A stretch of 64,000 nucleotides of DNA from a bacterium (GTDB lineage Bacteria > Patescibacteriota > Patescibacteriia > UBA9934 > GWF2-40-263), in contig JAGVFR010000026.1 of assembly GCA_020057555.1 (NCBI GenBank), forward strand, positions 22,631-86,630, given 5' to 3'. Within the stretch, counting starts at the first letter, position 1. Every line of letters starts with the position of its first letter. Below, piece by piece: positions 8,090-59,563 of this stretch. Under the pieces are notes generated by a model that was given only the letters and a program-made list of their open reading frames with translations, searched no databases and was not told the DNA's origin. The position numbers and the translations under genes were made by a program.

Positions 8090-9181
8090 ATGACACAAAT
8101 TACAGAATTCAATTATCATCTTCCAAGAGAGTTAATCGCACAATGCTCTGTCCAGCCTCGCGACCAATCACGGCTCATGGTTTTGGATAAACAAACAGGG
8201 AAGTTGAACCACAAGAAATTTTTTGAGATTGTTGATGAGTTGAAAACAGGTGATGTACTTGTATTTAATGATACAAAAGTTTTTAGAGCCCGGCTCAAGA
8301 CGCAAAATGGAATTGAGATATTTTTGTTGCGTGCGCGGGAAGACGATATTTGGGAAGTTTTGGCGCGTCCGGGAAAGAAGTTGCAGGTTGGACAAACACT
8401 TTGTATTGAACATGAAACAGAAAAACTTTGTGGAGAAGTGATGTCAAAACAATCAGACGGAACTGTTTTGATAAAATTTGATCGCGTACCAAATGACGTA
8501 ATCGCGTTTGCAAATATATACGGAGAGATTCCTATTCCTCCTTATGTGAAAAATATACCGGAGCGATTGGAAGATTATCAAACGATCTATGCAAAAGAGA
8601 CAGGTTCTGTTGCGGCGCCAACAGCCGGTTTTCACTTCACAGAAGATCTTATGGAAGAATTAAAATCAAAAGGCGTGCAATTCGAATTTGTAACACTTCA
8701 CGTTGGAATTGGAACTTTTCGTCCAATGAAAACAGAAACGATCGAGGAACATGAAATGCACAGCGAGTTTGTTTCTGTCTCAAAAGAGACAGCAGATCGG
8801 ATCAATCAAGCAAAAAAAGATGAGCGACGCGTGATCGCTGTTGGAACGACAACAGTTCGTACACTTGAAGGAGTCGCAAATTATCCCCTGAGCGAAGGTC
8901 AATTAGGCCTTCGACAGGCTCAGGCAATAATTGACCGAAGTCGAATGGGTAATTTTTATCTTCCAGATGGTTTTACAGGCGACGTTAATCTATTTATCAA
9001 ACCAGGCTTTGATTTCAAAATAATTGATGGGCTTATAACGAATTTTCATTTACCAAAATCAACATTACTGGTTTTGGTTTCGGCTTTTGCTGGAAGAGAA
9101 AATGTTTTGCGCGCGTATGAAGAAGCAGTTGCGCAACAGTATCGTTTTTTTTCCTTTGGCGACGCGATGTTTATTGCTTGA
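8090..9181 (+). CDS. queA: S-adenosylmethionine:tRNA ribosyltransferase-isomerase
   Basis: N-terminal FNYHLPRELIAQ and overall QueA layout; carries an in-frame insertion of the 25-nt dispersed repeat at 8908-8932. Confidence 0.9.
   Translation: MTQITEFNYHLPRELIAQCSVQPRDQSRLMVLDKQTGKLNHKKFFEIVDELKTGDVLVFNDTKVFRARLKTQNGIEIFLLRAREDDIWEVLARPGKKLQVGQTLCIEHETEKLCGEVMSKQSDGTVLIKFDRVPNDVIAFANIYGEIPIPPYVKNIPERLEDYQTIYAKETGSVAAPTAGFHFTEDLMEELKSKGVQFEFVTLHVGIGTFRPMKTETIEEHEMHSEFVSVSKETADRINQAKKDERRVIAVGTTTVRTLEGVANYPLSEGQLGLRQAQAIIDRSRMGNFYLPDGFTGDVNLFIKPGFDFKIIDGLITNFHLPKSTLLVLVSAFAGRENVLRAYEEAVAQQYRFFSFGDAMFIA
8908..8932 (+). repeat. dispersed 25-nt repeat CCTTCGACAGGCTCAGGCAATAATT (copy inside queA coding sequence)
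   Basis: Exact 25-mer also at 57313-57337; near-identical copies at 34817-34841 and 20178-20196; flanked here by the 9-bp inverted repeat GGTCAATTA/TAATTGACC. Confidence 0.8.
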
Positions 9182-9938
9182 TCGCGTAGCTGATGCTCAC
9201 GTGTATTGTGACTTTCTCCTGTCCTTCTTCAATCGTTGGTGCTGAGTCAGGAACACTTACCGCCTTTTCCATTGCGTAAAAGCTTACGCCACTTTCTTCT
9301 TTCCATTCAGTGTAACTTATCGGTGATCGTAGCTTGACGCCCAATTGTTCAGCAATTGTTTGAGCGCGTGATTTTGCGTCATCAAGCGCTGCGAGTCGAG
9401 CTTCATCAAGTGCAGTTTGGTCGTTTTCAATGGAAAAATTTGGTCCTGAGATATTTGTTGCGCCATTTTGTCCGATAGTTTCTAGAATCGAAGAAATTTT
9501 TTCAAGATCACGAATTGTTAAATCAATACTTTGACTAACAACCCAGCCAATTGTGTTTCCATACGTTCCTGTTTCAGGATCGTATTTTTTTTCTTCGTAA
9601 GCGTTGTAGTTGCTTGTTTGAATGTCTTTTTCATCAATATTGAGTGATTTTACTTTTTCAATCAGAGCGTTCATTTTTTCTGAATTGTTGTTTTGCGTTA
9701 GATCAAGAGTTTTTGCGCGTGACTCAACAGAGAATGTCACTTTTGCCATGTCCGGTTTTATCTCAGCTCTTCCAACACCTTCAACGCTGATTGTAAATTC
9801 ATAAGGCGTTGGTTTGCCAACCTGCATTGCCTCGCGCAATGTTTGCCAAGTTTTGAAACCAAGGAATAAAGCGAGCATGAGCAAAACTATCAGGCTCAAA
9901 ACATGGAGCCATTTATTTTCATGTATGTTTGTGATCAT
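9171..9938 (-). CDS. SIMPL/DUF541-like secreted or membrane-anchored protein
   Basis: N-terminal TM/signal anchor; length and C-terminal pattern compatible with the SIMPL family; weak assignment. Confidence 0.45.
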   Translation of the reverse strand: MITNIHENKWLHVLSLIVLLMLALFLGFKTWQTLREAMQVGKPTPYEFTISVEGVGRAEIKPDMAKVTFSVESRAKTLDLTQNNNSEKMNALIEKVKSLNIDEKDIQTSNYNAYEEKKYDPETGTYGNTIGWVVSQSIDLTIRDLEKISSILETIGQNGATNISGPNFSIENDQTALDEARLAALDDAKSRAQTIAEQLGVKLRSPISYTEWKEESGVSFYAMEKAVSVPDSAPTIEEGQEKVTIHVSISYAIKQ

Positions 9939-19495: not shown

Positions 19496-20566
19496 ATGAA
19501 AGCAATCATTCTTGCAGGAGGAGTTGGCACAAGACTTTGGCCAATGTCTCGCCAGAAAAAACCAAAACAATTTTTTGAAATTGTAAATGATGTTCCTCTA
19601 ATAAAAGAAACTTACAATCGTCTTCTTAGATTGTTGCCGTCTGAAAAAATATTTTTTTCCATTTCTCCTTCGTTTGACAATCTTTTACACGAGATACTTC
19701 CAGAAATTTCAAACGATCATATTTTGATTGAACCTGAAAAACGAGACACCGGTCCTGCAATGGGTTACGTTGCCGCGTTAATGGAACTTTATGATTCTGA
19801 TGAACCGATAGTATTTATCCCATCCGATCATAATATTAAAGATGAAGAAATGTTTTTGCGTACACTTGAGGTAGGAGACATGCTTGTAAGAAAAACAGGA
19901 AAACTTCTTGACATAGCTGTGACTCCGACTTTTCCAAGCACTGTTCTTGGATACACTAGGATTGGTGAATTGTATGACACAATAAACGACGTCAAGGTTT
20001 ATCGTTTCGCTGGTCACACAGAAAAACCTCCATACGAAGTTGCAAAACAATATCTTGAAAAAGGATCATATTTGTGGCATGCAAATTATTACATGTGGAC
20101 ACCGCGCAAGTTTATGGAAGCGTTTGAAACATACGCGCCAGAGATTGGAAAAGTGTTGAGAGAAATTCAACATACAACCCTTCGACAGGCTCAGGGTATA
20201 GATGTTTTCTTCAGATCGCTTCCCAAAATATCTTTTGATTATTCTGTTACAGAAAAAATGGATCCACAAGAAGTTCTAATAATGAAAGGAAATTTTGGTT
20301 GGAGCGATATTGGTGCATGGGATACTTTGTGCGATCATCTTTCAGATAAAGGACAAAATGTTACAAAAGGAAAGTGTTTAATGATAGATACAAAAGGATC
20401 TTTGGTGTATGCGCCTGAAAATAAACTTGTTGCAGTATTAGGCATGGAAGATGTTATCATTGTTGATACTGGTGACGCCTTGCTTGTGTGTCCAAAATCA
20501 CGCGCACAAGAAGTTAAAAAAATTGTAGAAAAACTTCTGGAAAGTGGAGACGATAAACTAATATAA
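19496..20566 (+). CDS. sugar-1-phosphate nucleotidyltransferase (mannose-1-phosphate guanylyltransferase-like)
   Basis: MKAIILAGGVGTRLWPMSR motif; carries an in-frame copy of the dispersed repeat (encodes TLRQAQGI) at 20178-20196. Confidence 0.8.
   Translation: MKAIILAGGVGTRLWPMSRQKKPKQFFEIVNDVPLIKETYNRLLRLLPSEKIFFSISPSFDNLLHEILPEISNDHILIEPEKRDTGPAMGYVAALMELYDSDEPIVFIPSDHNIKDEEMFLRTLEVGDMLVRKTGKLLDIAVTPTFPSTVLGYTRIGELYDTINDVKVYRFAGHTEKPPYEVAKQYLEKGSYLWHANYYMWTPRKFMEAFETYAPEIGKVLREIQHTTLRQAQGIDVFFRSLPKISFDYSVTEKMDPQEVLIMKGNFGWSDIGAWDTLCDHLSDKGQNVTKGKCLMIDTKGSLVYAPENKLVAVLGMEDVIIVDTGDALLVCPKSRAQEVKKIVEKLLESGDDKLI
20178..20196 (+). repeat. dispersed repeat copy (CCCTTCGACAGGCTCAGGG) inside the nucleotidyltransferase CDS
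   Basis: Matches the first 17 nt of the 25-nt repeat core. Confidence 0.7.
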
Positions 20567-21674: not shown

Positions 21675-22946
21675 ATGGATTATTTTGAAACAGGAGTTGC
21701 TTGGCCGGATGTGAAATGTCCGGTCATAGCAGAACGGCCGTTAAGAGTCGCAAACGGACGTTCAGATGGACACACAGTGATCTCATCTCTCAAAGTTGTC
21801 GTACTTGTTAATGGTTGTTTGTATGCCGTTCTTGAGGATGGTCATGGATTGCGAGCAGGTGACATACTTTCTCGCAACTTTGATCTAACTCGAAAAAAAG
21901 GATGTGATACAACAGAACCAACTGAGCAAGTTTTCGTTCGTTACAAGAGTATATTTGACGCACGTCGTGGAATAGGGCGCGTTTATGGCCGATATCGGGA
22001 AATCGAAATTCCTGAATTGGCTCGCTGGAAAATGGATACAGATTGGTTGTTTCGAACTTCGTGGACGCTACATCGCGCAACAAAGGAGCAAGAAGAGCAA
22101 TTCGTCTGGCAAGCCGAGCGTTGTATCAAGAAGCACGAGAAAGACACATCCGAAATCAAACTTGACGCGCTCCGTCGGTTATTAAAGATTCAGACAATGA
22201 CGGACTCACTCGGCCGACGAAACACAACTATGATTCCTATGTTGTGCTGTGCTATTGACCGATCACTTGAAGCTCGCACACAGCAAGTTCGCGGAATTGG
22301 AAGACGAATGGATTGGCGTGCAATGGTGCTTGAGCACGTCATTGATCAGATACAAGCCGAATGTCGGGCTATCCGTCGAGCCGCGTTGGACGTTCTTCAA
22401 GCAAATGATATCTTCGGAGAAGCGCGTACGCCAAGAACATTGCGCGGTCGCGCGAATCGAATAAGCGACTACGCGGAATTCCTCAAAATAGTTCAAGTTC
22501 GGACCTTCACACGCGTGTTTGCGCACGTTGTTAGTGAACTCAAAGAGGTCGCTGAACTTTTTCATGACGCGGCTAGTAAGCGTGACAGTGGACATCTTGA
22601 ACGTGCTCGTCTGCTTCTTGGCAAGATATATCGTTCAATGATTTTACTTGAACAGCACTGGCGGCTTGAAGAGGTTTTGGTAGTTGTCAGTTCACACGTT
22701 CACAACGGTGAAGTCCTATCTGCTTATCAGATTCGTCTTTTCACAGACGAACTTGATGAAGTGCATCGCACATTGACCAATCCAGACCCTGTTACTGGAG
22801 TCCACATTGATACGGACTTTGAGACAGATGTGTTGCCAATCGTTGTTGGCAATGTGCTTTCTTGTCTGACTAATCTTCGAGGTGAAGACGACGTATTTCT
22901 TCCGTCGTTGTATGACGACTTGAAGATCGCGTGCAAACCTCTCTGA
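21675..22946 (+). CDS. hypothetical Arg/Ala-rich cytoplasmic protein (orphan)
   Basis: 423-aa ORF with regional GC about 50%; third codon positions stay AT-rich (host-like) while GC1/GC2 are high from composition; no recognisable motif. Confidence 0.5.
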   Translation: MDYFETGVAWPDVKCPVIAERPLRVANGRSDGHTVISSLKVVVLVNGCLYAVLEDGHGLRAGDILSRNFDLTRKKGCDTTEPTEQVFVRYKSIFDARRGIGRVYGRYREIEIPELARWKMDTDWLFRTSWTLHRATKEQEEQFVWQAERCIKKHEKDTSEIKLDALRRLLKIQTMTDSLGRRNTTMIPMLCCAIDRSLEARTQQVRGIGRRMDWRAMVLEHVIDQIQAECRAIRRAALDVLQANDIFGEARTPRTLRGRANRISDYAEFLKIVQVRTFTRVFAHVVSELKEVAELFHDAASKRDSGHLERARLLLGKIYRSMILLEQHWRLEEVLVVVSSHVHNGEVLSAYQIRLFTDELDEVHRTLTNPDPVTGVHIDTDFETDVLPIVVGNVLSCLTNLRGEDDVFLPSLYDDLKIACKPL

Positions 22947-31335: not shown

Positions 31336-31405
31336 GGAGCGTGGAGCTGTGTCGCAGGGAACAGCGGCGAAGAGTCCGCTGGCCCGGAGACATAGCTCCA
31401 CGCTC
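31336..31405 (+). repeat. conserved-core hairpin element, copy 2; terminator position after the GH-like gene
   Basis: Stem GAGCGTGGAGCTGTGTC/GACATAGCTCCACGCTC around core GCAGGGAACAGCGGCGAAGAGTCCGCTGGCCCGGA; followed by ATTTAATTTATTTTTT. Confidence 0.7.
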
Positions 31406-34219: not shown

Positions 34220-34807
34220 TCAAGCAATGCCTGGCAAAGGATCGCGTTTTTCAACTCCAGAGCATGCGACCAGAAGATCCCAGGAAGGACAGTCGCGCGT
34301 TGTGCACCAATCTCGGTCTGATGAAATTCTTTCTCCACATTCTGGACATTGCCAGCATGAGGAAGTCTTTTTAGTGCTTTGCTTTTTTCGAGCGCGAGCA
34401 ACAGTGAGAATGTACAAGTACTCGATCCACCAGAGCGTTAGTTCAAGACTCTCTTGGTGCGCGATTGAGTTTCGCGTTCGAAACACATGTAGACTCTCTT
34501 TTGGTTGCACGACTTTCAGTTCGTGCGGGTCCATTAGATCGAAGAGCGCTCGTGGAATATTGCATTTGCGCAATACTCCAACAAGTGGCGATAAGCGACG
34601 GCGTAGTGGTTGTGGAAGATCTTGCAGAGTGAAGGTAGCACGAATCGTGTGCAGATGTGCCCATGACACATTGACCCGATCAGGAACGATGATCAACCGT
34701 TGTGGAGGTTTTTGGTGGTCCTCCTCAATATCAGGTCCAACGGCTGACTGTTGCGAAGCACCATGAAAAAAGTCTTCCATGTTTCCCTCCGAAGATAAAC
34801 ATATCAT
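34220..34807 (-). CDS. hypothetical protein with C-terminal zinc-ribbon (orphan)
   Basis: Minus ORF (alternative start 34780); CWQCPECG...C..RDC motif; the overlapping plus-strand ORF is Ser/Arg/Cys-rich junk; regional GC about 50%. Confidence 0.45.
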   Translation of the reverse strand: MICLSSEGNMEDFFHGASQQSAVGPDIEEDHQKPPQRLIIVPDRVNVSWAHLHTIRATFTLQDLPQPLRRRLSPLVGVLRKCNIPRALFDLMDPHELKVVQPKESLHVFRTRNSIAHQESLELTLWWIEYLYILTVARARKKQSTKKTSSCWQCPECGERISSDRDWCTTRDCPSWDLLVACSGVEKRDPLPGIA

Positions 34808-34816
34808 TGTAGTTTG

Positions 34817-34841
34817 CCTTCGACAAGCTCAGGCAATAATT
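34817..34841 (+). repeat. dispersed 25-nt repeat copy (CCTTCGACAAGCTCAGGCAATAATT) in the divergent promoter region
   Basis: 1 mismatch to the 8908 copy; flanked by CATTGTAG/CTATAATG inverted repeat. Confidence 0.8.
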
Positions 34842-36252: not shown

Positions 36253-37139
36253 AAACAAGTTGGTTTCGAAATTGTGCGGAGTTAATTATCTTGATCGCTA
36301 TCATTGCCACGGTTTACACACAACGCGTGGGGATTTCGCAGTGGTTTCGAGAAATGATGGAGCCGTCTGTGCCAGAGGCAGTGGAGTTTGAAAAAATAAC
36401 AGAGGAAAAGGAAGAAGGTAGTCGCGGGCTTCAGCCCGCGCAAGCGCCAGTCATCCCGAGTGCCGTCGATGGATCTGAAGAAAAAATATTGCCTGAACCT
36501 GTTGAAGGCAGTATAGATGATGTAGTTGTCACTTCGACAAGCTCAGTGGATAAAATTTTGCCTGTTGAAATCAATCTCGCTGTTCCTTTTACATCTCAAG
36601 CTCCGCACGCGAATTGGGATTTACCATATAAAGAAACATGCGAAGAAGCATCGCTCTATATGGTTGATGTTTATTATAAAGGAGTAAAAGCGGGGAAGAT
36701 TGCGGCTGATACTGCGGACGAGGAGATTAAAAAAATTATAGAATTTGAAAAAGAAATTTTTGGATATTATGAAGACACAACCGCAGAACAAGTTGGAATT
36801 CTTGCGGAAATGATGTATGGTCACGAAAAAATTGAACTGATCGAAAATCCAACTGTTGAACAAATTAAAAAACATGTTGCTGAAGGACATCCGGTTATTG
36901 TTCCTGCGGCAGGACGAGAACTTGGTAATCCGAATTTCACAGCGCCTGGTCCGATATATCACATGTTAGTGATTCGCGGATACACAAAAGATGGTAAATT
37001 CATCACAAATGATCCGGGCACAAAAAACGGCGAAGCATATGTTTACGATTTTGACACAGTTATGAACGCGATGCATGATTGGAACAATGGTGACGAGATC
37101 ACGGAAGGAAAAAAGGTAGTACTAATTGTTTATCCATAA
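36249..37139 (+). CDS. peptidase C39-like domain protein (YvpB-like), membrane-anchored
   Basis: N-terminal TM; FTSQAPHANWDLPYKETCEEAS Cys-containing block resembling C39-like domains. Confidence 0.45.
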   Translation: MKTSWFRNCAELIILIAIIATVYTQRVGISQWFREMMEPSVPEAVEFEKITEEKEEGSRGLQPAQAPVIPSAVDGSEEKILPEPVEGSIDDVVVTSTSSVDKILPVEINLAVPFTSQAPHANWDLPYKETCEEASLYMVDVYYKGVKAGKIAADTADEEIKKIIEFEKEIFGYYEDTTAEQVGILAEMMYGHEKIELIENPTVEQIKKHVAEGHPVIVPAAGRELGNPNFTAPGPIYHMLVIRGYTKDGKFITNDPGTKNGEAYVYDFDTVMNAMHDWNNGDEITEGKKVVLIVYP

Positions 37140-40431: not shown

Positions 40432-40496
40432 CTTTTTGTTGTTAAAATGATGAAATAGGTCGTCCATGCATGAAATGCATAGGAAAGGAGAAAGGG

Positions 40497-41057
40497 ATGA
40501 GGTTTTTCGTTGTAGTTCTGTTCGTTCTCACAGGGTTCGTTCCGATGGCCTATGCGCAAGAGGAATGTCCTGAAAGTCAGATCATTTCTGATAGTGTCGA
40601 AGCCGAGGTCTGCAAGCTCGATCCAAAAGACAGAGCAGTCGTTGACAAGATCAAGGACGTTCTCTCGCGAGCGAACGAGAAGGAACTCGACAGACTTCGA
40701 ACAAAGATCAAGAACGATCCTGCGTGGAAGATCGCGAACGAAACGCAGAGAGCGTTTTGGCAAGAAGTTATCAACATCGCTTTCATCCATCTCTGGCAAG
40801 ACGACTGTCTTACTCTCTATCTCATGCTCGGTTATTACAGTCGCGCGAATCATACGAAGGTGGATGAGGAATGTGCACGGAACATAGAAAGGCTTGTGTC
40901 AACACTTATAGACACGAAGTCGCCGTTTCCTTCTCCGCACGAAGATTGCCGCAAGGATGATCCAGTGGCTGTTGCGCGGTTCGATCAAGCGCTGGCTTAT
41001 TTTTACATAGTGTATCGCGTGAAGTACAAGTGTCATTGCGATACGGAAGGATACTGA
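40497..41057 (+). CDS. hypothetical secreted Cys-containing protein
   Basis: Strong SD AGGAAAGGAGAAAGGG; signal peptide; GC about 50% with GC3 about 60%, clearly above host genes. Confidence 0.5.
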   Translation: MRFFVVVLFVLTGFVPMAYAQEECPESQIISDSVEAEVCKLDPKDRAVVDKIKDVLSRANEKELDRLRTKIKNDPAWKIANETQRAFWQEVINIAFIHLWQDDCLTLYLMLGYYSRANHTKVDEECARNIERLVSTLIDTKSPFPSPHEDCRKDDPVAVARFDQALAYFYIVYRVKYKCHCDTEGY

Positions 41058-48233: not shown

Positions 48234-48308
48234 GGATCAGTTTGCATCATGTCGTAAGGAACAACGGCGAAGAGTCCGTTGGCCCGGAGATATGGTGCAA
48301 ACTGATCC
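48234..48308 (+). repeat. conserved-core hairpin element, copy 4
   Basis: Stem GGATCAGTTTGCATCAT / ATGGTGCAAACTGATCC around core GTCGTAAGGAACAACGGCGAAGAGTCCGTTGGCCCGGAGAT. Confidence 0.7.
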
Positions 48309-54371: not shown

Positions 54372-55148
54372 ATGGACGAATTAATGAACGAACTCAAGCA
54401 TTTAGGTTTATCTGACAAAGAGGCGTCTGTTTATCTTGCATCGCTTGAACTTGGCCCAGCTTCTGTGCAAGACATATCGCACAAAGCAAAAATAAATCGC
54501 GCGACAACATACGTGATGATAGAGGTATTGTCAGGACGTGGACTTCTTTCAACTTTTGTAAAAGGGAAGAAACGTTTTTACGCGCCAGAAAGTCCTGATC
54601 GATTGATTTCCATTTTACGCGTGCAACAGAAAGAACTTGAAGAAAAAGAAAAAGAGTTTGCAAAGTCGCTTCCATTGTTGCTCGCGCTTTATAATGCTGA
54701 AGGAGCAAAGCCGCAGATTCGATATTTGGAAGGGCCAGAAGGATTGCGATCTTTGCGTCAGACTTTTGAAAAATTGAATGGGGAATTTGTTCAGATTCTT
54801 TCGATTGACGATGCGTTGGCAACAAGAGAACTAATGGAAGAAAGTCCGAAACATGTTTCCGCTCTTCGACAAGCAAGCACTTCTTATAGAATTTTGGCAG
54901 TTTTAGATAAGAAGGAACCAAAAGATATTCCGGAGATGGGAACAGGCGAAATTAGAATGGTTCCGTTTTTGGAGTTTCCAATGCACGGTGAGATTACCGT
55001 GCGAGGAAATCATGTGTTTTTGTTTTCATATCGTTCAGCAGTTTTGGCTGTTGTGATTGTAAGTAAAGAGGTCGCTGATGCGGCTCGGGCATTGTTTGAG
55101 CTTGCTTGGAAAGGAGCAAAAGATTTTCAATCAAGAATGGATAAATAA
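54372..55148 (+). CDS. TrmB-family transcriptional regulator
   Basis: N-terminal LGLSDKEASVYLASLELGPASVQDISHKAKINRATTYVMIEVL wHTH typical of TrmB-like regulators. Confidence 0.7.
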   Translation: MDELMNELKHLGLSDKEASVYLASLELGPASVQDISHKAKINRATTYVMIEVLSGRGLLSTFVKGKKRFYAPESPDRLISILRVQQKELEEKEKEFAKSLPLLLALYNAEGAKPQIRYLEGPEGLRSLRQTFEKLNGEFVQILSIDDALATRELMEESPKHVSALRQASTSYRILAVLDKKEPKDIPEMGTGEIRMVPFLEFPMHGEITVRGNHVFLFSYRSAVLAVVIVSKEVADAARALFELAWKGAKDFQSRMDK

Positions 55149-55677
55149 CAAAATAGGACCGAGTGTGGTCCGTTGTTGAGAGAGATAAGATATGAGAGAA
55201 GCGCAACAATGTGCGCGAGAGCTTTTTTATGTGAAGCTAGAAAAGGAGCTACGATCCGAGAGCACAATGCATGTGCGGTTGGAGAAACGCCGGATTGAAC
55301 CGACGCGGGTTGAGTTCGTTTGCGTACGTTTTGAGAACCATTCCTGCTTCCATTTTATTACCTCGGACTTTGCCGGCTTGGCCTGCCGGCCAGGCATCTC
55401 ATCCAAAACTTTTAGGATGAGAATATACTCTAGCAATTTTTGTTGATTTTGTCAAGCCAATTGGACTGACTAAGAAGAATTTGGAGAATTTGTTGATATT
55501 TATTAACATATTTTGTCCTGTGACCATTGACAAGCAAAAGATTATTTGATAGTTTGGTCGGTTCACTCAAGAAGTGGGCAATGAGGAAGAGAGGACATAA
55601 AACCGACCAACTCCCAATGGCCGGTTTTATCTTAGTCGAAACATGGTACATGGGTTCATGTGTGTGATAAACAAAAA

Positions 55678-55708
55678 GACGTCCTGTAAACAGGGCGTCT
55701 TTTTTTTG
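55678..55708 (+). terminator. intrinsic terminator with no upstream CDS (possible sRNA 3' end)
   Basis: GACCGTCCTG-TAAA-CAGGGCGTC hairpin followed by T8; TTGACA at 55527 and the hairpin 55554-55610 lie upstream. Confidence 0.55.
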
Positions 55709-55718
55709 GGAAAGAGCT

Positions 55719-55838
55719 ATAGCCATCACATTATAAAATGGGACTTTAGACGACTTACCTGTGGATGGGATGCGAAGGACAAGCAGACCGCCACAGGAAA
55801 GGATGGATAAATCCTATTTCATAATGTGATGGCTATAC
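55719..55838. repeat. 120-nt element bounded by perfect 17-bp terminal inverted repeats
   Basis: TATAGCCATCACATTAT ... ATAATGTGATGGCTATA; internal CCTGTGG...CCACAGG and GGAT..ATCC sub-hairpins. Confidence 0.6.
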
Positions 55839-56186
55839 AGTCTTGCGACCGCGCGGTCGTTGGACATTACATTATGATTCCGTACTTATAAAGATGAAAA
55901 ACAAGCAGGTTGCCATTTTTAATTTTTTATGGAGTATGGAACCATAATGTAATGTCCACATTCCTCTCACAGGTCTTCATTGCAAGCATGGAGCAATGGA
56001 AAACTGTGATTGGAGGGCGACGTTGGAAAGATATCCTTCGTCGCCCAAGAGTTTGCCTTCTCGGCTGGAGGCTCTGCTTCCTCTTGGCTCACCGTTTTAG
56101 GAAGGTGACTCCTTTTTGTCGCGTGTTTCAGATTGTAGTGGAATGTGTTAACTCACTTTGCCCTCCTAAATGTTTGGTTTTTTTGG

Positions 56187-57197
56187 CTACGAGAGCATGG
56201 CCTGGAGCTTGAGCTCGGCCATACGGATCACGCCAGGAACCGTCCAGTTCTTGATCGCACGGACGTCCGCGGCGGTCAGACCAGAGTTGCGAATTTTGAT
56301 AGCCGCGCGACCGAGTTGACGGTACTCGTCCTTGCTCACGCCCGGGACGATCTTGCCCTGAACGCGGCGTGGCGGACGAACCAGACCTAGACCGCATGCG
56401 AGCAAACTTCCGTCGCGCAGGGTTTCGACGTGCGAGCGAGTTTCGGCGATTCTTGCGTCAACGCGTTCTTCGGCCTCGCGCTGAAGCCGTGCTTCCTCGG
56501 TCGCTCTCTCGTCCGCGAACATATTCTCGATTGCCGCCATTGCCTCGGGCACGGTCTGCGATCCGAGCGGCAGAACGGTCTGTGCGCACTTGGGGCAGAA
56601 CGACTTCTGAAGGAGACCATGAACGGTCACCTCCTCGAGCCTCTTGACCCCGATAGCGCGCATGATTGTGCTGAACACGACCGCGACCCTTGCCTCGTTC
56701 ATCGGAACGAGTCGCAGACACTGTCCGAACTTTCCCTGACAGACCACGTGGTCCACGCCGTCCTTCGCAATGACGAGTCCCGGGGTGAACCTGACCTCGG
56801 GCTCGAGAACGGGCTCGGGCGCTGGAGCGGGTGCGGCGGGAGCCTTCTTGGTCTCGGCCTTGTGGACCTTGACCTTCGCCGGCTTCGGTGTCTCGACCTT
56901 CGGAGCCGGGGACGGGTTGGCCTCGGTCTTGGGCGAGACGATCTCCTTGGCCATGATTTCGACAGCCTCGATCGAGGAGCAATCCCTCCAGTTCTGGCCC
57001 GTGACCTCGATGATGTGCATGGCGCGACCGAGCTCGACGTGGGATGCGAGGAAGTTGATCGAGCCCTCGAAGTGACGCTCAACCACACGGCCGAGCTCTT
57101 CGAGTTCGCCAGGGAGACCGGGGCGGGAGTCGTCCTGCGGGATGATCTGAAGTCCGGGAGCCATCTGCGCGACCATGCGTAACCTCCAAAAAAGCAT
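56187..57197 (-). CDS. hypothetical protein on high-GC island (orphan, Pro/Ala/Lys-rich linker)
   Basis: Minus-frame codon positions sampled at 56761-56820: GC1 75%, GC2 40%, GC3 85%; GC switches to host-like at the stop codon; other overlapping ORFs are GC artefacts. Confidence 0.6.
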   Translation of the reverse strand: MLFWRLRMVAQMAPGLQIIPQDDSRPGLPGELEELGRVVERHFEGSINFLASHVELGRAMHIIEVTGQNWRDCSSIEAVEIMAKEIVSPKTEANPSPAPKVETPKPAKVKVHKAETKKAPAAPAPAPEPVLEPEVRFTPGLVIAKDGVDHVVCQGKFGQCLRLVPMNEARVAVVFSTIMRAIGVKRLEEVTVHGLLQKSFCPKCAQTVLPLGSQTVPEAMAAIENMFADERATEEARLQREAEERVDARIAETRSHVETLRDGSLLACGLGLVRPPRRVQGKIVPGVSKDEYRQLGRAAIKIRNSGLTAADVRAIKNWTVPGVIRMAELKLQAMLS

Positions 57198-57312
57198 GTG
57201 TCCTGGGTCCCGAACCTACACCACGTAGGAACGGATCAATTTATAGAACCTATCGGTCCTACGACCTTAGCAGTTTGGAAATTGTTATACCTTGAGCGAA
57301 GGAAAATTACTG

Positions 57313-57337
57313 CCTTCGACAGGCTCAGGCAATAATT
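57313..57337 (+). repeat. dispersed 25-nt repeat copy between the two high-GC genes
   Basis: Exact match to 8908-8932; flanked by AAATTACTG/CAATAATTT. Confidence 0.8.
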
Positions 57338-57463
57338 TGCCGGAGTCGGAGGGTTAGATTCAATTTCTAAACTATTAAGATCGTTCCGGGTGGCGTGTTC
57401 AGGGAAAGAAATCCCTTTACACACCACCCGGAAGATATAGAGCGGAGAGAGCGGAAAGAACTA

Positions 57464-58003
57464 CTAGCCGTTGGCGACCTTGCGGGCCTTGCCCTTGACG
57501 GTCACGATCGGCGTCTCGACGGCGGCGGGAGCCTCGGCGGGCGTGGAGACCGGAGCCGGTGTCACGGCGACCGCGGCCTTGAGCTCGGCCACAACCTGCG
57601 GGCCGACCTGCTCACCGATCGGGGTCGAGGCGAGAGCAGGCTTGGCGGGTGCGGAAGCGGCGGGCTTGGGCGTGAGCTTCGGCGCGGGCTTCTCGGACTT
57701 GGACTTCGGGAAGTAGGACATCGTGTTGACCATGTCCTTGAAGTCCAGGAGCGGTGCGAGGGCCGAGTTCTGCCCCATGCCGTGCTCGATGTTGTCGATG
57801 GCCTTCGTGAGAAGGGCCTTTCCGACGTCTTCGATGCAGCGCATGGTGTAGTACTCGGTGCCGACGTAGTCGTCGCGCTTCTCCGGGTCGAGGCCGAGCA
57901 CCTCGCACGCCTTCGCGAAGATCTTGTCGCGCAACTCCCTTTCGAAGATGCGTCCGTAGAGCGGGGAGGGATCGGTCGAGGGGGCCTGGAAGCTGGTCTT
58001 CAT
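57464..58003 (-). CDS. hypothetical protein on high-GC island (orphan, Pro/Ala/Lys-rich tail)
   Basis: GC3 20/20 in a sampled 60-nt stretch; N-terminal globular part then KPAPKLTPKPAASAPAKPALAST linker and a Lys-rich C-terminus. Confidence 0.6.
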   Translation of the reverse strand: MKTSFQAPSTDPSPLYGRIFERELRDKIFAKACEVLGLDPEKRDDYVGTEYYTMRCIEDVGKALLTKAIDNIEHGMGQNSALAPLLDFKDMVNTMSYFPKSKSEKPAPKLTPKPAASAPAKPALASTPIGEQVGPQVVAELKAAVAVTPAPVSTPAEAPAAVETPIVTVKGKARKVANG

Positions 58004-58573
58004 TGAAATTCTCCTTTTCGATGGCCTGCCTCCAGCCGAACCTGACCCCTGTGGTCAAATCCGCTTTCAGCTCGATGACGGCAAATGTTGTCACCATTGA
58101 GCTGAATCGGATTTTCCCAGAAATACGGAGGTAAAGTGTGACCCATTGACCTGCCCGAAGGCTGGTGTAGATCGTGAGTCTCTTGCGTATGAATTCAGTC
58201 AGCCTAGGCCGAATGAACACATTTGAGACTCTCTGCCAATGTCGTCTTGTAAGACTCGATTGGACAGCTTTACTCTCTCCTCCGTGTTTCTGGGTCGGTT
58301 TTTAACAAAAAACCGGTTGTCGTATATATCTGATCTTTTTGGCAAGAGTCAGACGTACACAACAACCGGTTCTTTTATTCAAAGAATGGCTATTGACTAC
58401 CTTTATACCGTGGGTAGTGCACGGACTCTCTCCCAAAAGTCCTATTTGTAAGAATCATCTTAACGGTCATACTATATCATATTCTGTCAAAACTGTCAAG
58501 ACCCGTATGTCGGTGAGGTTAGAATTTTAGCTAAAATTAGACAAAAGCTACTGTCAGGATTTTTTAGACTTAT

Positions 58574-58620
58574 CACTCCGTCACTTCTTCACTCCGTCAC
58601 TTCTTCACTCCGTCACTTTG
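58574..58620 (+). repeat. tandem 16-mer CACTCCGTCACTTCTT x3 directly upstream of holB
   Basis: Seen directly; related CACTCCATTACTCCATCACT at 54340-54366 upstream of the TrmB-like gene. Confidence 0.7.
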
Positions 58621-58639
58621 TGTTACACTAAAATCTGTT

Positions 58640-59563
58640 ATGGAACCTTTTTCTAAGACGATCGGCCACAAAACGGCACGACAAGTGTTTTTGCGCATGA
58701 TAGAAAACAACCAGCTTCCGCATGCGATTCTTTTTGTTGGTCCAAAACATGTTGGGAAAACTCATCTTGTCACAGAATTGATCCAGCATCTTTTTCATAC
58801 AATACGTCATCCATCGCTCATTTCCGATGTTAGTCTTTTAGCAAGAGAAGTTGATCCAAAAACAGGCAAGAAAAAATTCGCTATTTCTGTTAAACAAGTT
58901 CGTGCTCTTGTTGAACGTCTTTCAATGACTCCAATGGAAGGAAATTGGAAAATCGCGTTCATTCAAGAAGCTGATCGGCTTTCGATCGGAGCCGCGAATG
59001 CGCTTCTCAAAACACTTGAAGAACCAAAAGGAAACGCTCTTATAATTTTACGCGCGCCAAGTGTTGAATCTGTTTTGCAAACAATCGCGTCTCGTTGTCA
59101 GATTTTTCGACTGTCGCCTGTTGCCAAATCAGAAATTATTCCAGCGCTTCAAAAACGTGGGCTTTCAAAAACAGAAGCAGATGAAATTTCAGAGCGATCT
59201 TTTGGTTGTCCGGGAATTGCGATTCGATATATTCAAGATAGTGAAATGCGCGCGCGCAAAGAAACAGCGATCGCGCAAGTCGAAACTTTAATGAACGCGT
59301 CGCTTCCAGAGCAATTTAGATTAGTTTTTGATCTCATTCCAAAAACAGAAATTGACAAGTCTATTGCACTTTCTCATTTGCTCGATGATTGGTCAGAAGT
59401 GTTGCGCGCGAATTTATTAAAAACAGTCGCTGAAAAGCAAACAGCAACCGTGAATAAAACCGCTCGCGTTCTAAATTGTATTCAAACTGTTCGTAGCGCG
59501 ATTTCTCACAACATAAATCCTCATTTATCTTTAGAACATATTTTTTTATCAACACATGTATGA
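58640..59563 (+). CDS. holB: DNA polymerase III delta' subunit
   Basis: AAA+ Walker A GPKHVGKT and delta-prime layout. Confidence 0.8.
   Translation: MEPFSKTIGHKTARQVFLRMIENNQLPHAILFVGPKHVGKTHLVTELIQHLFHTIRHPSLISDVSLLAREVDPKTGKKKFAISVKQVRALVERLSMTPMEGNWKIAFIQEADRLSIGAANALLKTLEEPKGNALIILRAPSVESVLQTIASRCQIFRLSPVAKSEIIPALQKRGLSKTEADEISERSFGCPGIAIRYIQDSEMRARKETAIAQVETLMNASLPEQFRLVFDLIPKTEIDKSIALSHLLDDWSEVLRANLLKTVAEKQTATVNKTARVLNCIQTVRSAISHNINPHLSLEHIFLSTHV

Follow-up and report, generated by a model that had tools for sequence, protein, structure and literature searches.

A G/C-rich, hypervariable two-gene unit framed by conserved RNA structures between trmB and holB in Candidatus Uhrbacteria

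Two minus-strand genes, here called A and B, occupy positions 56187-58003 of the window (the whole 64-kb stretch of DNA that was analysed) and form an island of high G+C content (GC). They belong to a predicted transcription unit of ~2.8 kb that runs from 58499 to 55672 on the minus strand. This unit is restricted to Candidatus Uhrbacteria and relatives, in which it has a fixed place between holB and trmB and is inherited vertically. Its RNA parts are far more conserved than its open reading frames (ORFs), and the G/C-rich codon usage is an equilibrium state that is confined to the ORFs. Judged from comparison of sequences, we see about an even chance that this is a lineage-specific, RNA-framed, hypervariable operon, in which the G/C-rich coding composition would be held by selection restricted to the ORFs.

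Composition of the coding sequences and its equilibrium

The GC of the island is 0.613, compared with 0.404 in the window outside the trmB-holB interval. Against 569 equal-sized windows elsewhere (mean 0.404, s.d. 0.019, maximum 0.453) this corresponds to z = 10.8. The two genes have values of 0.663 (A) and 0.628 (B), and the spacer between them 0.463. The initial annotation had described a GC-rich island with high-GC coding periodicity in a low-GC genome, and this description holds. The GC at first, second and third codon positions (GC1, GC2 and GC3) is 0.61, 0.47 and 0.91 in gene A and 0.68, 0.44 and 0.77 in gene B, so that the first two positions are raised as well as the third, whereas GC3 in the remaining 54 long ORFs of the window is 0.31 ± 0.053 with a maximum of 0.54. 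The contigs of relatives, taken from independent ENA, JGI and NCBI assemblies, likewise have an island of 58-70% GC in a genome of ~42% GC.

The change in composition occurs at the ends of the ORFs. Measured over 17 ORFs at 10 loci (the window and nine related contigs), the third-position GC in frame rises from 0.52 upstream of the start to 0.88 in the first 10 codons, and falls from 0.91 in the last 10 codons to 0.53 downstream of the stop. It had been stated that GC falls to the host level at these borders. The switch is indeed sharply ORF-bound, but the level reached in the borders and untranslated regions (UTRs) is 0.43-0.50. That this exceeds the genome mean is due to the flanks, which consist of conserved structured RNA.

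Codons ending in C are preferred over those ending in G (C3 0.46, G3 0.36), with strong codon-specific asymmetries such as CTC 25 versus CTG 6, and GGC 14 versus GGG 2. The lowest GC3 values in the window are those of ribosomal protein L25 and PGK (0.22-0.23). Translational selection of the ordinary kind thus does not favour G/C in this genome, and ordinary codon optimisation is ruled out as the cause of the island composition. We note that the next-highest GC3 values in the window belong to the ORFs at 40470-41057 (+; 0.54), 34220-34807 (-; 0.42) and 21675-22946 (+; 0.40), all three without Pfam matches. These might be milder instances of the same effect, or genes acquired longer ago.

Related contigs and loci are numbered L001-L020, and W denotes the window in the locus comparisons. 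Third-position synonymous changes were polarised by parsimony using the window, L001 and L006 (3-4 taxa), where the bias of parsimony works against the result obtained. In the island, changes from G/C to A/T (S>W) were found at 65 of 237 GC sites and the reverse changes (W>S) at 28 of 45 AT sites; the corresponding fractions in the flanks are 125/303 and 175/799. The implied equilibrium GC3 is 0.69 for the island versus 0.35 for the flanks, and the rates differ in both directions (Fisher p = 1e-3 for S>W and 2e-8 for W>S).

The synonymous divergence (dS) with Jukes-Cantor correction understates the true divergence at a GC3 of ~0.9, and was replaced by a saturation-relative measure; divergence is expressed relative to the ceiling because strong codon bias lowers the ceiling on synonymous differences. 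On this measure synonymous turnover is 53-99% of saturation in the island versus 39-69% in the flanks. In the deepest comparisons the codons at conserved residues are fully randomised (ratio 0.9-1.1), yet both lineages have a GC3 of 0.70-0.98 at the very same codons. No signature of a donor could persist through a complete turnover of synonymous sites, and the composition of the island is therefore that of equilibrium. By contrast with the ORFs, the substitutions in the non-coding parts of the unit are balanced. These occur at 0.159 (W>S) and 0.184 (S>W) per site, implying an equilibrium of 0.46 where the current value is 0.45, while W>S in the ORFs is 0.62 per site (p = 2e-11 against the non-coding value).

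Location and inheritance of the locus

The order shared among relatives is trmB, ~1 kb of non-coding DNA, gene B, the spacer, gene A, ~0.7 kb of non-coding DNA and holB. A search of related genomes placed the island at this site in at least eight independent Candidatus Uhrbacteria assemblies. It was found there in L001, L002, L006, L008, L011, L013 and L016, and is present in every related contig that spans the site, so the distribution is not patchy. The contigs include a 98.5-kb contig from JGI, a 234-kb contig of an NCBI metagenome-assembled genome, ENA contigs of 21 and 15 kb, and further JGI contigs of 10 and 50 kb. In at least six independent assemblies, from different projects, the island is joined to the same host genes on both sides, which bears out the earlier view that it truly resides in this genome. 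The neighbours in the window are a GT4 glycosyltransferase, TrmB, HolB and a BNR protein. Inspection of these neighbours revealed no integrase or transposase near the island, as had been noted at the outset; there is no tRNA gene in the window, and no flanking direct repeats or att repeats at the island.

Homologues are few. The search covered 5.8 billion proteins and 1.84 billion cluster representatives. Each protein has 5-6 homologues among the 5.8 billion sequences, one of which is annotated as Candidatus Uhrbacteria, and profile search of the 1.84 billion representatives added 13 distant relatives of B. Common to these are an RPGLPG..LGR motif in the N-terminal part and a Cys4 core, and in most of them the protein ends in a very basic tail. 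Of those distant B relatives for which the DNA could be traced, most come from the same locus type. Every DNA-traced homologue adjoins trmB or holB, or Uhrbacteria leader or 3′ RNA, with the exceptions of L010, L018 and L019, which are distant members of the B family and unanchored. No match was obtained by tblastn against 50,697 phage records (INPHARED) and 72,556 plasmids, a 20-mer of the leader had 0 matches in a scan of viral contigs, and in the search for a plausible donor lineage only locus-linked homologues from bacteria of the candidate phyla radiation (CPR) were found.

The more distant loci differ in gene content. L008, whose flanking proteins are 78-86% identical to those of the window (flank dS 0.54-1.45), has only a homologue of A (49% identical, GC3 0.94) joined directly to the 3′ module, and gene A is likewise followed directly by the 3′ module in L012. 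In L011 a B protein of 36% identity adjoins trmB in a host of ~55% GC, with a GC3 of 0.96. L009 and L020 have a B-like gene behind the same leader RNA, together with other first ORFs, and L010 and L019 have only short stretches of the post-ORF element in common with the window. The first ORF of L019 is a divergent homologue of A (hhalign probability 91%); for the two remaining alternative first ORFs a relation to A could not be demonstrated. The ORFs of these distant loci have GC3 values of 0.83-0.96 throughout, with the single exception of L018 (0.52).

A recent transfer from a high-GC donor, an actinobacterium or its phage, had been proposed in the initial annotation. This is not supported, on several grounds: no donor homologues were found in the collections searched, the site is shared by relatives, the island is older than the split of genomes whose flank dS reaches 1.45, and its high GC3 has outlasted complete synonymous turnover, with the equilibrium values given above.

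Contigs carrying distant versions of the unit (L009, L011, L014, L019 and L020) are repeatedly of ~3.0-3.5 kb and lack terminal repeats. The assemblies probably break at flanking hairpin repeats or at GC-dependent shifts in coverage, and such ~3-kb pieces could be lost from genome bins. An extrachromosomal circular element was considered, and is ruled out by the absence of terminal repeats from the ~3-kb contigs and by the inclusion of trmB in L011. Near trmB, the GT4 gene and mreB, relatives carry a gene for a 23S-rRNA-IVP/bAvd-like four-helix bundle and a GIY-YIG gene, and the window does not; since these genes are found in relatives and not in the interval of the window, small genes are in flux in this neighbourhood.

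The RNA frame and the variable proteins

The features of the unit are collected in Table 1. Promoter P1, of near-consensus sigma-70 type, is conserved in W, L001, L006, L008, L009 and L013. In comparisons between close genomes, where dS of the neighbouring genes is 0.3-0.7, leader segment 1 is ~100% identical, and its purine motif, at 58423-58440, is invariant. The hairpin of this segment (58306-58371; inverted repeat I3) has ~20 bp followed by U5-6, and thus a G+C-containing hairpin with a U-run stands between promoter and ORF, as in an intrinsic terminator. It looks like an attenuator or terminator, and wobble-compatible changes preserve it in the distant L009 and L017. The sequence of its 5′ arm, CCGGUUGUUGUGUACG, does not vary even in loci with a changed 3′ arm, which is compatible with a second pairing partner, although none was identified.

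Table 1. Coordinates of the features of the unit in the window, and of small genes in related contigs.
Feature	Position	Strand	Description
Promoter P1	58471-58499	-	TTGACA, 17 nt, TATAGT, TG extension; 11/12 consensus positions
Leader segment 1	58306-58470	-	Purine motif ACTTTTGGGAGAGAGTCC and hairpin with U-run
Leader segment 2	58116-58294	-	~180-nt four-way junction; closing helix ACACGGAGG x CCUCCGUAU
Leader segment 3	58004-58071	-	Holds the gene A Shine-Dalgarno (SD) sequence AAGGAG
Gene A	57464-58003	-	179 aa, GC3 0.91; ORF with SD AAGGAG
Post-A element	57383-57454	-	Pyrimidine motif CCGCTCTCTCCGCTCT, then conserved 52-nt imperfect hairpin
Dispersed host repeat	57285-57356		Like repetitive extragenic palindromes (REP) or miniature inverted-repeat transposable elements (MITE); in variable middle of A-B spacer
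Pre-B block	57174-57268	-	GGUCGUAGGACC hairpin, CCUACGUGGUGUAGG hairpin, gene B SD GGAGG
Gene B	56187-57176	-	329 aa, GC3 0.77; P0001 100% identical
Mini-ORF 3′ of gene B stop	56148-56167	-	SD, start, one sense codon, TAA
Post-ORF element (PE)	56051-56113	-	Contains GGTGAGCCAAGAGGAAGCAGAGCCTCCAGCCGAGAAGGCA; recurs after ORFs elsewhere
3′ module	55961-56047	-	Variable hairpin, then helix CCAAUCACAG/CUGUGAGAGG enclosing CCAUUGC-loop-GCAAUG
Two palindromic MITE-like insertions	55716-55960		55859-55960 and 55716-55839; inverted repeats I1, I2
Terminator T1	55672-55707	-	GACGCCCUG-UUUA-CAGGACGUC and U-run
Extra small genes in relatives	L001 13262-13618; L006 13751-14107, 15327-15629; L002 4230-4496		

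Covariation supports the larger domains. The alignment of leader segment 2 (A9, 10 loci) contains 60 pairs, with 99% of cells paired. Compensatory double changes occur at 20 of these pairs, compared with 6.4 ± 1.8 in shuffles (0/500) and 0-4 in slid controls. Segment 3 is invariant in W, L001 and L006, and conserved in L008. The post-A element is nearly invariant in four loci where the adjacent coding DNA is ~78% identical, and its hairpin at 57384-57433 (inverted repeat I4) is the spacer hairpin that had been noticed earlier. The pre-B block forms invariant columns in alignment A1. The codons of the mini-ORF are GTG AGT TAA in W, ATG CGC TAA in L001, ATG CGT TAA in L006 and ATG CTC TAA in L002, and it may act as a device for ribosome loading or for termination and reinitiation. 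In L019 the PE follows both ORFs as a 171-nt repeat of 87% identity; it lies upstream of the B-like gene in L020 and L010, and behind the preceding ORF in L020. The 3′ module, in an alignment (A10) of eight loci that include L009, L011 and L020, contains 25 pairs of which 7 are compensatory. The intrinsic terminator T1 is conserved at every locus, and L009, L011 and L020 show compensatory changes in it. No Rfam 15 family matched the 64-kb window at the gathering threshold, and a search of 55100-58700 at E <= 10 gave only sub-threshold noise.

The purine motifs GGGAGAGAG (58423-58440) and GGAGGAGAGAG (58270-58285) are complementary to the pyrimidine motifs CUCUCUCC (57439-57454) and GCUCUUUCCCAAAA (~55705-55720), all on the minus strand. 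A 14-bp pairing between the 5′ and 3′ ends, of leader purine with 3′ pyrimidine motifs, is possible; the motifs are all invariant, and hence exhibit no covariation.

Further features lie close to the unit. On its 3′ side a second promoter (TTGACA, 17 nt, TAGAGT, TG extension; 10/12 consensus positions) precedes a predicted conserved non-coding transcript of ~270 nt (55149-55455, minus strand) that starts with a CUCAUCC...GGAUGAG hairpin, and whose terminator at 55149-55171 abuts the trmB stop. The core of this transcript, CACAUGCAUUGUG, is recognisable even in the distant L019. It had no match in Rfam, and may hold an ORF of 34 codons. On the 5′ side, between the holB start and P1, there are ~2.8 copies of a 16-nt tandem repeat GTGACGGAGTGAAGAA (58573-58620, minus strand), which is absent from L001 and L006.

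Repeats have been inserted at several positions. The claim that the low-GC spacer contains an exact copy of a host repeat is upheld and can be extended: 57312-57337 is an exact 26-nt copy of 8907-8932, and the similarity continues over 72 nt at 83% identity (8881-8951). Further copies, with the core GCCTTCGACAGGCTCAGGCAATAATT, are found at 20179-20200, 34815-34841 and 36483-36552. The spacer of L006 contains this repeat, that of L002 lacks it, and that of L001 has another insert in its place; since the repeat is inserted in the window and in L006 but not in L002, it is mobile within these genomes. In L006 it sits in the variable loops of both the spacer and the leader. The two MITE-like insertions have inverted arms of 26-29 nt and break up the 3′ UTR, one on each side of a conserved GACCGCGCGGUC hairpin. 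That at 55859-55960 is unique to the window, and that at 55716-55839 is common to close relatives and absent from L008. Another dispersed hairpin element, with the core GGGAACAGCGGCGAAGAGTCCGCTGGCCCGGA and long inverted arms, is present at 31350-31393 and 48250-48293. In the trmB-proximal non-coding region of L001, L002, L006 and L008 it occupies a variable position, and all that is left of it there in the window is a remnant near 55640-55670.

For gene B the most likely start is ATG 57176, which lies 6 nt behind GGAGG and agrees with the JGI call P0001 and with all orthologues. The gene had been annotated with 336 codons from 57197; its presence is not in question, but that start is unlikely. 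The orthologues of A are 49-72% identical, with a GC3 of 0.87-0.96 in all, and those of B are 62-79% identical. Protein A comprises a four-helix N-terminal domain (residues 20-100; AF2 pLDDT 85-93) and a disordered Pro/Ala/Lys-rich tail. Protein B begins with a helical domain containing the RPGLPG..LGR motif, followed by a PAPK linker, the Cys4 core (HVVCxGxxGxC...SFCxxCA), a coiled coil, and a C-terminal domain resembling a helix-turn-helix (HTH). The AF2 model is confident for residues 250-329 only, that is for the C-terminal 80 residues, which form the helical HTH-like domain. Residues C146, C153 and C194 are invariant in the B family, including the 13 distant representatives. The Pro/Ala/Lys-rich linkers first described for both proteins are thus present, and the designation of both genes as orphans also stands. 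There was no family match above noise in Pfam, PHROGs, PADLOC or NCBIfam, in scans that also included related cargo proteins; the best E value for A or B among the phage families of PHROGs was 0.09, and the PADLOC models of anti-phage defence matched neither A and B nor five related cargo proteins. Sequence-profile searches of the PDB gave no match, and fold searches returned non-specific results with no specific fold match. Both proteins are without signal peptides or lipoboxes and look cytoplasmic. The Cys4 core and HTH-like domain or basic tail of B, and the lysine-rich tail of A, suggest that they bind nucleic acid.

Antisense ORFs lie opposite gene A at 57395-58006 (+) of the window and at 9088-9681 (-) of L001. 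Because GC3 is high in the sense frame, the codon-aligned antisense frame stays open. The public gene call in L001 and the longest-ORF filter of the present analysis both chose the antisense ORF over gene A, so this is an annotation trap. Overlapping antisense genes are ruled out, as it is the sense frame that carries the GC3 extreme and the conserved protein motifs.

The proteins change rapidly. For the same pairs of genomes the flanking TrmB, HolB and BNR proteins are 91-98% identical and A and B 57-77%. The ratio of non-synonymous to synonymous divergence (dN/dS) is 0.47-0.83 for A and 0.21-0.33 for B, compared with 0.02-0.15 for the flanks, and the dS of the island is comparable to that of the flanks. 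Taken as a whole, the ORFs of the unit have dN/dS of 0.2-0.95, and the flanks 0.02-0.18. The corresponding ratio of uncorrected differences (pN/pS) is 0.63 in the N-terminal domain of A and 1.16 in its tail, and in B ranges from 0.27 (Cys4 core) to 0.62 (linker). In the same comparisons the non-coding blocks flanking and between the ORFs are ~100% identical, where synonymous sites of the neighbouring genes differ by 30-50%.

The alleles of A and B are recombination mosaics. Codons 141-180 of A (120 nt) are 100% identical in nucleotide sequence between the window and L013 or L014 (p ~1e-13), with 49-80% identity in the windows alongside, and segments of B that are 94-96% identical alternate with segments of 47-61%. 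A target of a diversity-generating retroelement was considered. It is ruled out by the absence of a template repeat, as blastn of the island against the whole window returned only the dispersed REP-like repeat. Over ±10 kb in L001 and L006, none of the neighbours annotated with Pfam is a reverse transcriptase, although no scan of the whole window with hidden Markov models was made.

Explanations of the composition and relation to known systems

In the explanation that we favour, selection on the translated part of the mRNA would hold its composition, while structured UTRs and post-ORF hairpins would protect the untranslated parts. Purging A and U from the part exposed to ribosomes would enable the whole transcript to resist AU-directed decay, or would set its translation, and the leader hairpin would act as the gate to the ORFs. 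Any such selection would concern composition rather than a specific fold, since the ORFs do not consistently fold better than shuffles. The hypervariability of A and B suggests a role in conflict or partner interaction of a symbiont. A number of points weigh against these proposals. The polarisation draws on 3-4 taxa and just 45 ancestral sites ending in A or T, and the B homologue of L018 has a GC3 of just 0.52. Folding of the gene B mRNA equals that of composition-matched shuffles (z = -0.15), and that of gene A is only modestly better (z = -3.0); additional mRNA structure beyond composition, considered as an explanation in itself, is inconsistent between the two genes for the same reason. 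The locus clearly recombines, and the lack of GC bias at non-coding sites does not count fully against biased gene conversion because these control sites are structurally constrained. The basis for a role in conflict is the evolutionary rate alone.

GC-biased gene conversion (gBGC) is the main rival, because of this recombination and the constraint on the non-coding controls. Heteroduplex mismatches that arise from frequent exchange of alleles in the ORFs would be repaired towards G/C at a recombination hot spot, driving weakly constrained third positions to high GC, while the RNA blocks would be kept by structural selection. The mosaicism is clear, with identical 120-nt tracts beside segments that are only 42-61% identical; at synonymous sites W>S fixation is raised and S>W fixation lowered; the ORFs of the locus are GC-rich whatever their family; and the GC of the UTRs exceeds the genome mean. 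All this speaks for gBGC. But the shift in GC3, from 0.31 to 0.75-0.96, is far above the few percent by which GC3 is reportedly raised in recombining bacterial genes, an effect that Lassalle et al. (PLoS Genet, 2015) are said to have attributed to gBGC. Moreover, the step in GC is codon-sharp at both start and stop, non-coding substitutions in the unit are unbiased (though at structurally constrained sites), and a preference for C-ending over G-ending codons is not predicted by a strand-symmetric repair bias. On balance we consider gBGC unlikely, while taking it seriously. The locus might instead be a cassette array or an integrated selfish element, integron-like or a degraded virus or satellite, with ORFs swapped at the structured sites that follow them. 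The ORF content does vary, from A only, or A and B, to small peptides with a 146-aa ORF and a B-like gene, or a 239-aa ORF with a duplicated B-like gene. The repeated structured element behind the ORFs (twice in L019), the single upstream promoter serving the array and the basic tails of B-family proteins would also fit. Yet no gene for an integrase, for replication or for a capsid is present, PHROGs gave no match, the viral-contig scan was without matches, the chromosomal site is fixed, the contigs lack terminal repeats or circularity, and by inspection the hairpins lack the R″/R′ consensus of attC. Since the apparently different first ORF of L019 is a divergent homologue of A, divergence in situ explains much of the ORF variety, and we regard a cassette array as rather improbable.

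Ancient acquisition from a high-GC donor (bacterium or virus) followed by slow amelioration would account for codon usage like that of a generic high-GC organism, for the lack of any function that ties the genes to core CPR biology, and for the small net loss of GC3 (65 S>W versus 28 W>S changes). However, no homologue was found outside the locus type in the protein, representative, phage and plasmid collections searched, and synonymous sites are saturated between lineages that have all retained their GC3. At the rates of the flanks GC3 is calculated to have fallen from 0.95 to ~0.7 since the split from L008, where 0.87-0.96 is observed. In addition GC switches exactly at the ORF borders, the UTRs are conserved in the lineage, and att repeats, tRNA genes and integrases are absent. 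Such an origin is therefore improbable. Many of the homologue contigs are short (0.9-3.5 kb) and assemblers often break near the island, as might arise from an assembly chimera or contaminating high-GC DNA; but given the same junctions with host genes in at least six independent assemblies, the host-type dispersed repeats inside the unit, and the continuity of the flanking RNA blocks with the ORFs, that explanation can be discounted almost completely. A more speculative reading, which we regard as very improbable, is that the unit makes an RNA or RNA-protein particle that works outside the encoding cell. The structured 5′ and 3′ modules would serve, together with possible cyclisation motifs (UUUUGGGAGAGAGU and GCUCUUUCCCAAAA) and the Cys4 protein with its basic tail, to package or stabilise the transcript, and the ORFs would carry the codon usage of a partner of higher GC that translates them, by analogy with the recipient-type expression signals of T-DNA.

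The favoured operon with ORF-restricted selection can be compared with known systems. Like genomic islands acquired by horizontal gene transfer (HGT), it exhibits a sharp local deviation in GC and codon usage, and ORFan cargo. It differs in lacking an integrase, tRNA gene, att repeats and donor homologues, in occupying a site common to relatives and being co-inherited with its flanks, and in a composition that is at equilibrium and not decaying by amelioration. Moreover the deviation is confined to the ORFs, and nothing in the locus is more conserved than the non-coding DNA that flanks them. Bacterial genes whose raised GC3 has been attributed to gBGC share the mosaicism, the raised GC3 and the W>S fixation bias, but here the magnitude is several-fold larger, the borders are codon-sharp, C is favoured over G and non-coding sites are unbiased. 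The vls locus of Borrelia is a hypervariable locus of antigenic variation with locally raised GC. Loci of this type resemble the present one in having GC above that of the genome, rapid protein divergence, segmental recombination and conserved flanks. They differ in that here there is no silent cassette array, and there are no direct repeats, signal peptides or lipoboxes; recombination occurs between lineages and is not programmed within a cell, and the proteins look cytoplasmic and nucleic-acid-binding.

Integron cassette arrays, in which the promoter Pc precedes promoterless ORFan cassettes that each have a structured attC site behind them, similarly have one upstream promoter and ORFans that are each followed by a hairpin element, with content that varies among relatives. 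Unlike these, the present locus has no IntI integrase in the Pfam neighbour lists and no attI, and its cargo is orthologous and not shuffled. Inspection of the post-ORF elements revealed no attC cores (GTTRRRY/RYYYAAC), with no dedicated attC model having been run. Operons controlled by riboswitches or attenuators have in common with it a strong promoter, a conserved multi-helix leader (~350 nt here), a terminator-like hairpin and helices supported by covariation. Here, by contrast, the terminator hairpin precedes the largest structured domain, there is a 3′ module together with post-ORF hairpins, and nothing matches in Rfam. Rfam, protein libraries and the searchable literature yielded no description of the locus or of its RNAs and proteins. 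The combination of ORF-bound, anti-genomic codon usage at equilibrium, a hypervariable operon and new framing RNAs fits no known kind of system that we can name.

Islands of unusual composition are usually interpreted as foreign DNA, but in this case such a signature reflects an equilibrium in an operon that has been inherited vertically. Flags for HGT or contamination that are based on GC or codon usage would mislabel the locus, gene callers mis-call it, and assemblers often break at it. It raises the question of what keeps two genes at 75-96% G/C in their synonymous positions when the genome as a whole is biased towards AT. Since this contrast is very large and recurs in separate lineages, the locus allows a direct comparison of selection on mRNA composition with biased gene conversion. 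It also adds at least two RNA structures supported by covariation, and two protein families that match nothing described, in CPR bacteria, whose regulation and host interaction are, to our knowledge, almost unknown. The hypervariability of the proteins within an ultra-conserved expression frame makes the unit a candidate factor in interactions between symbiont and host, or symbiont and phage.

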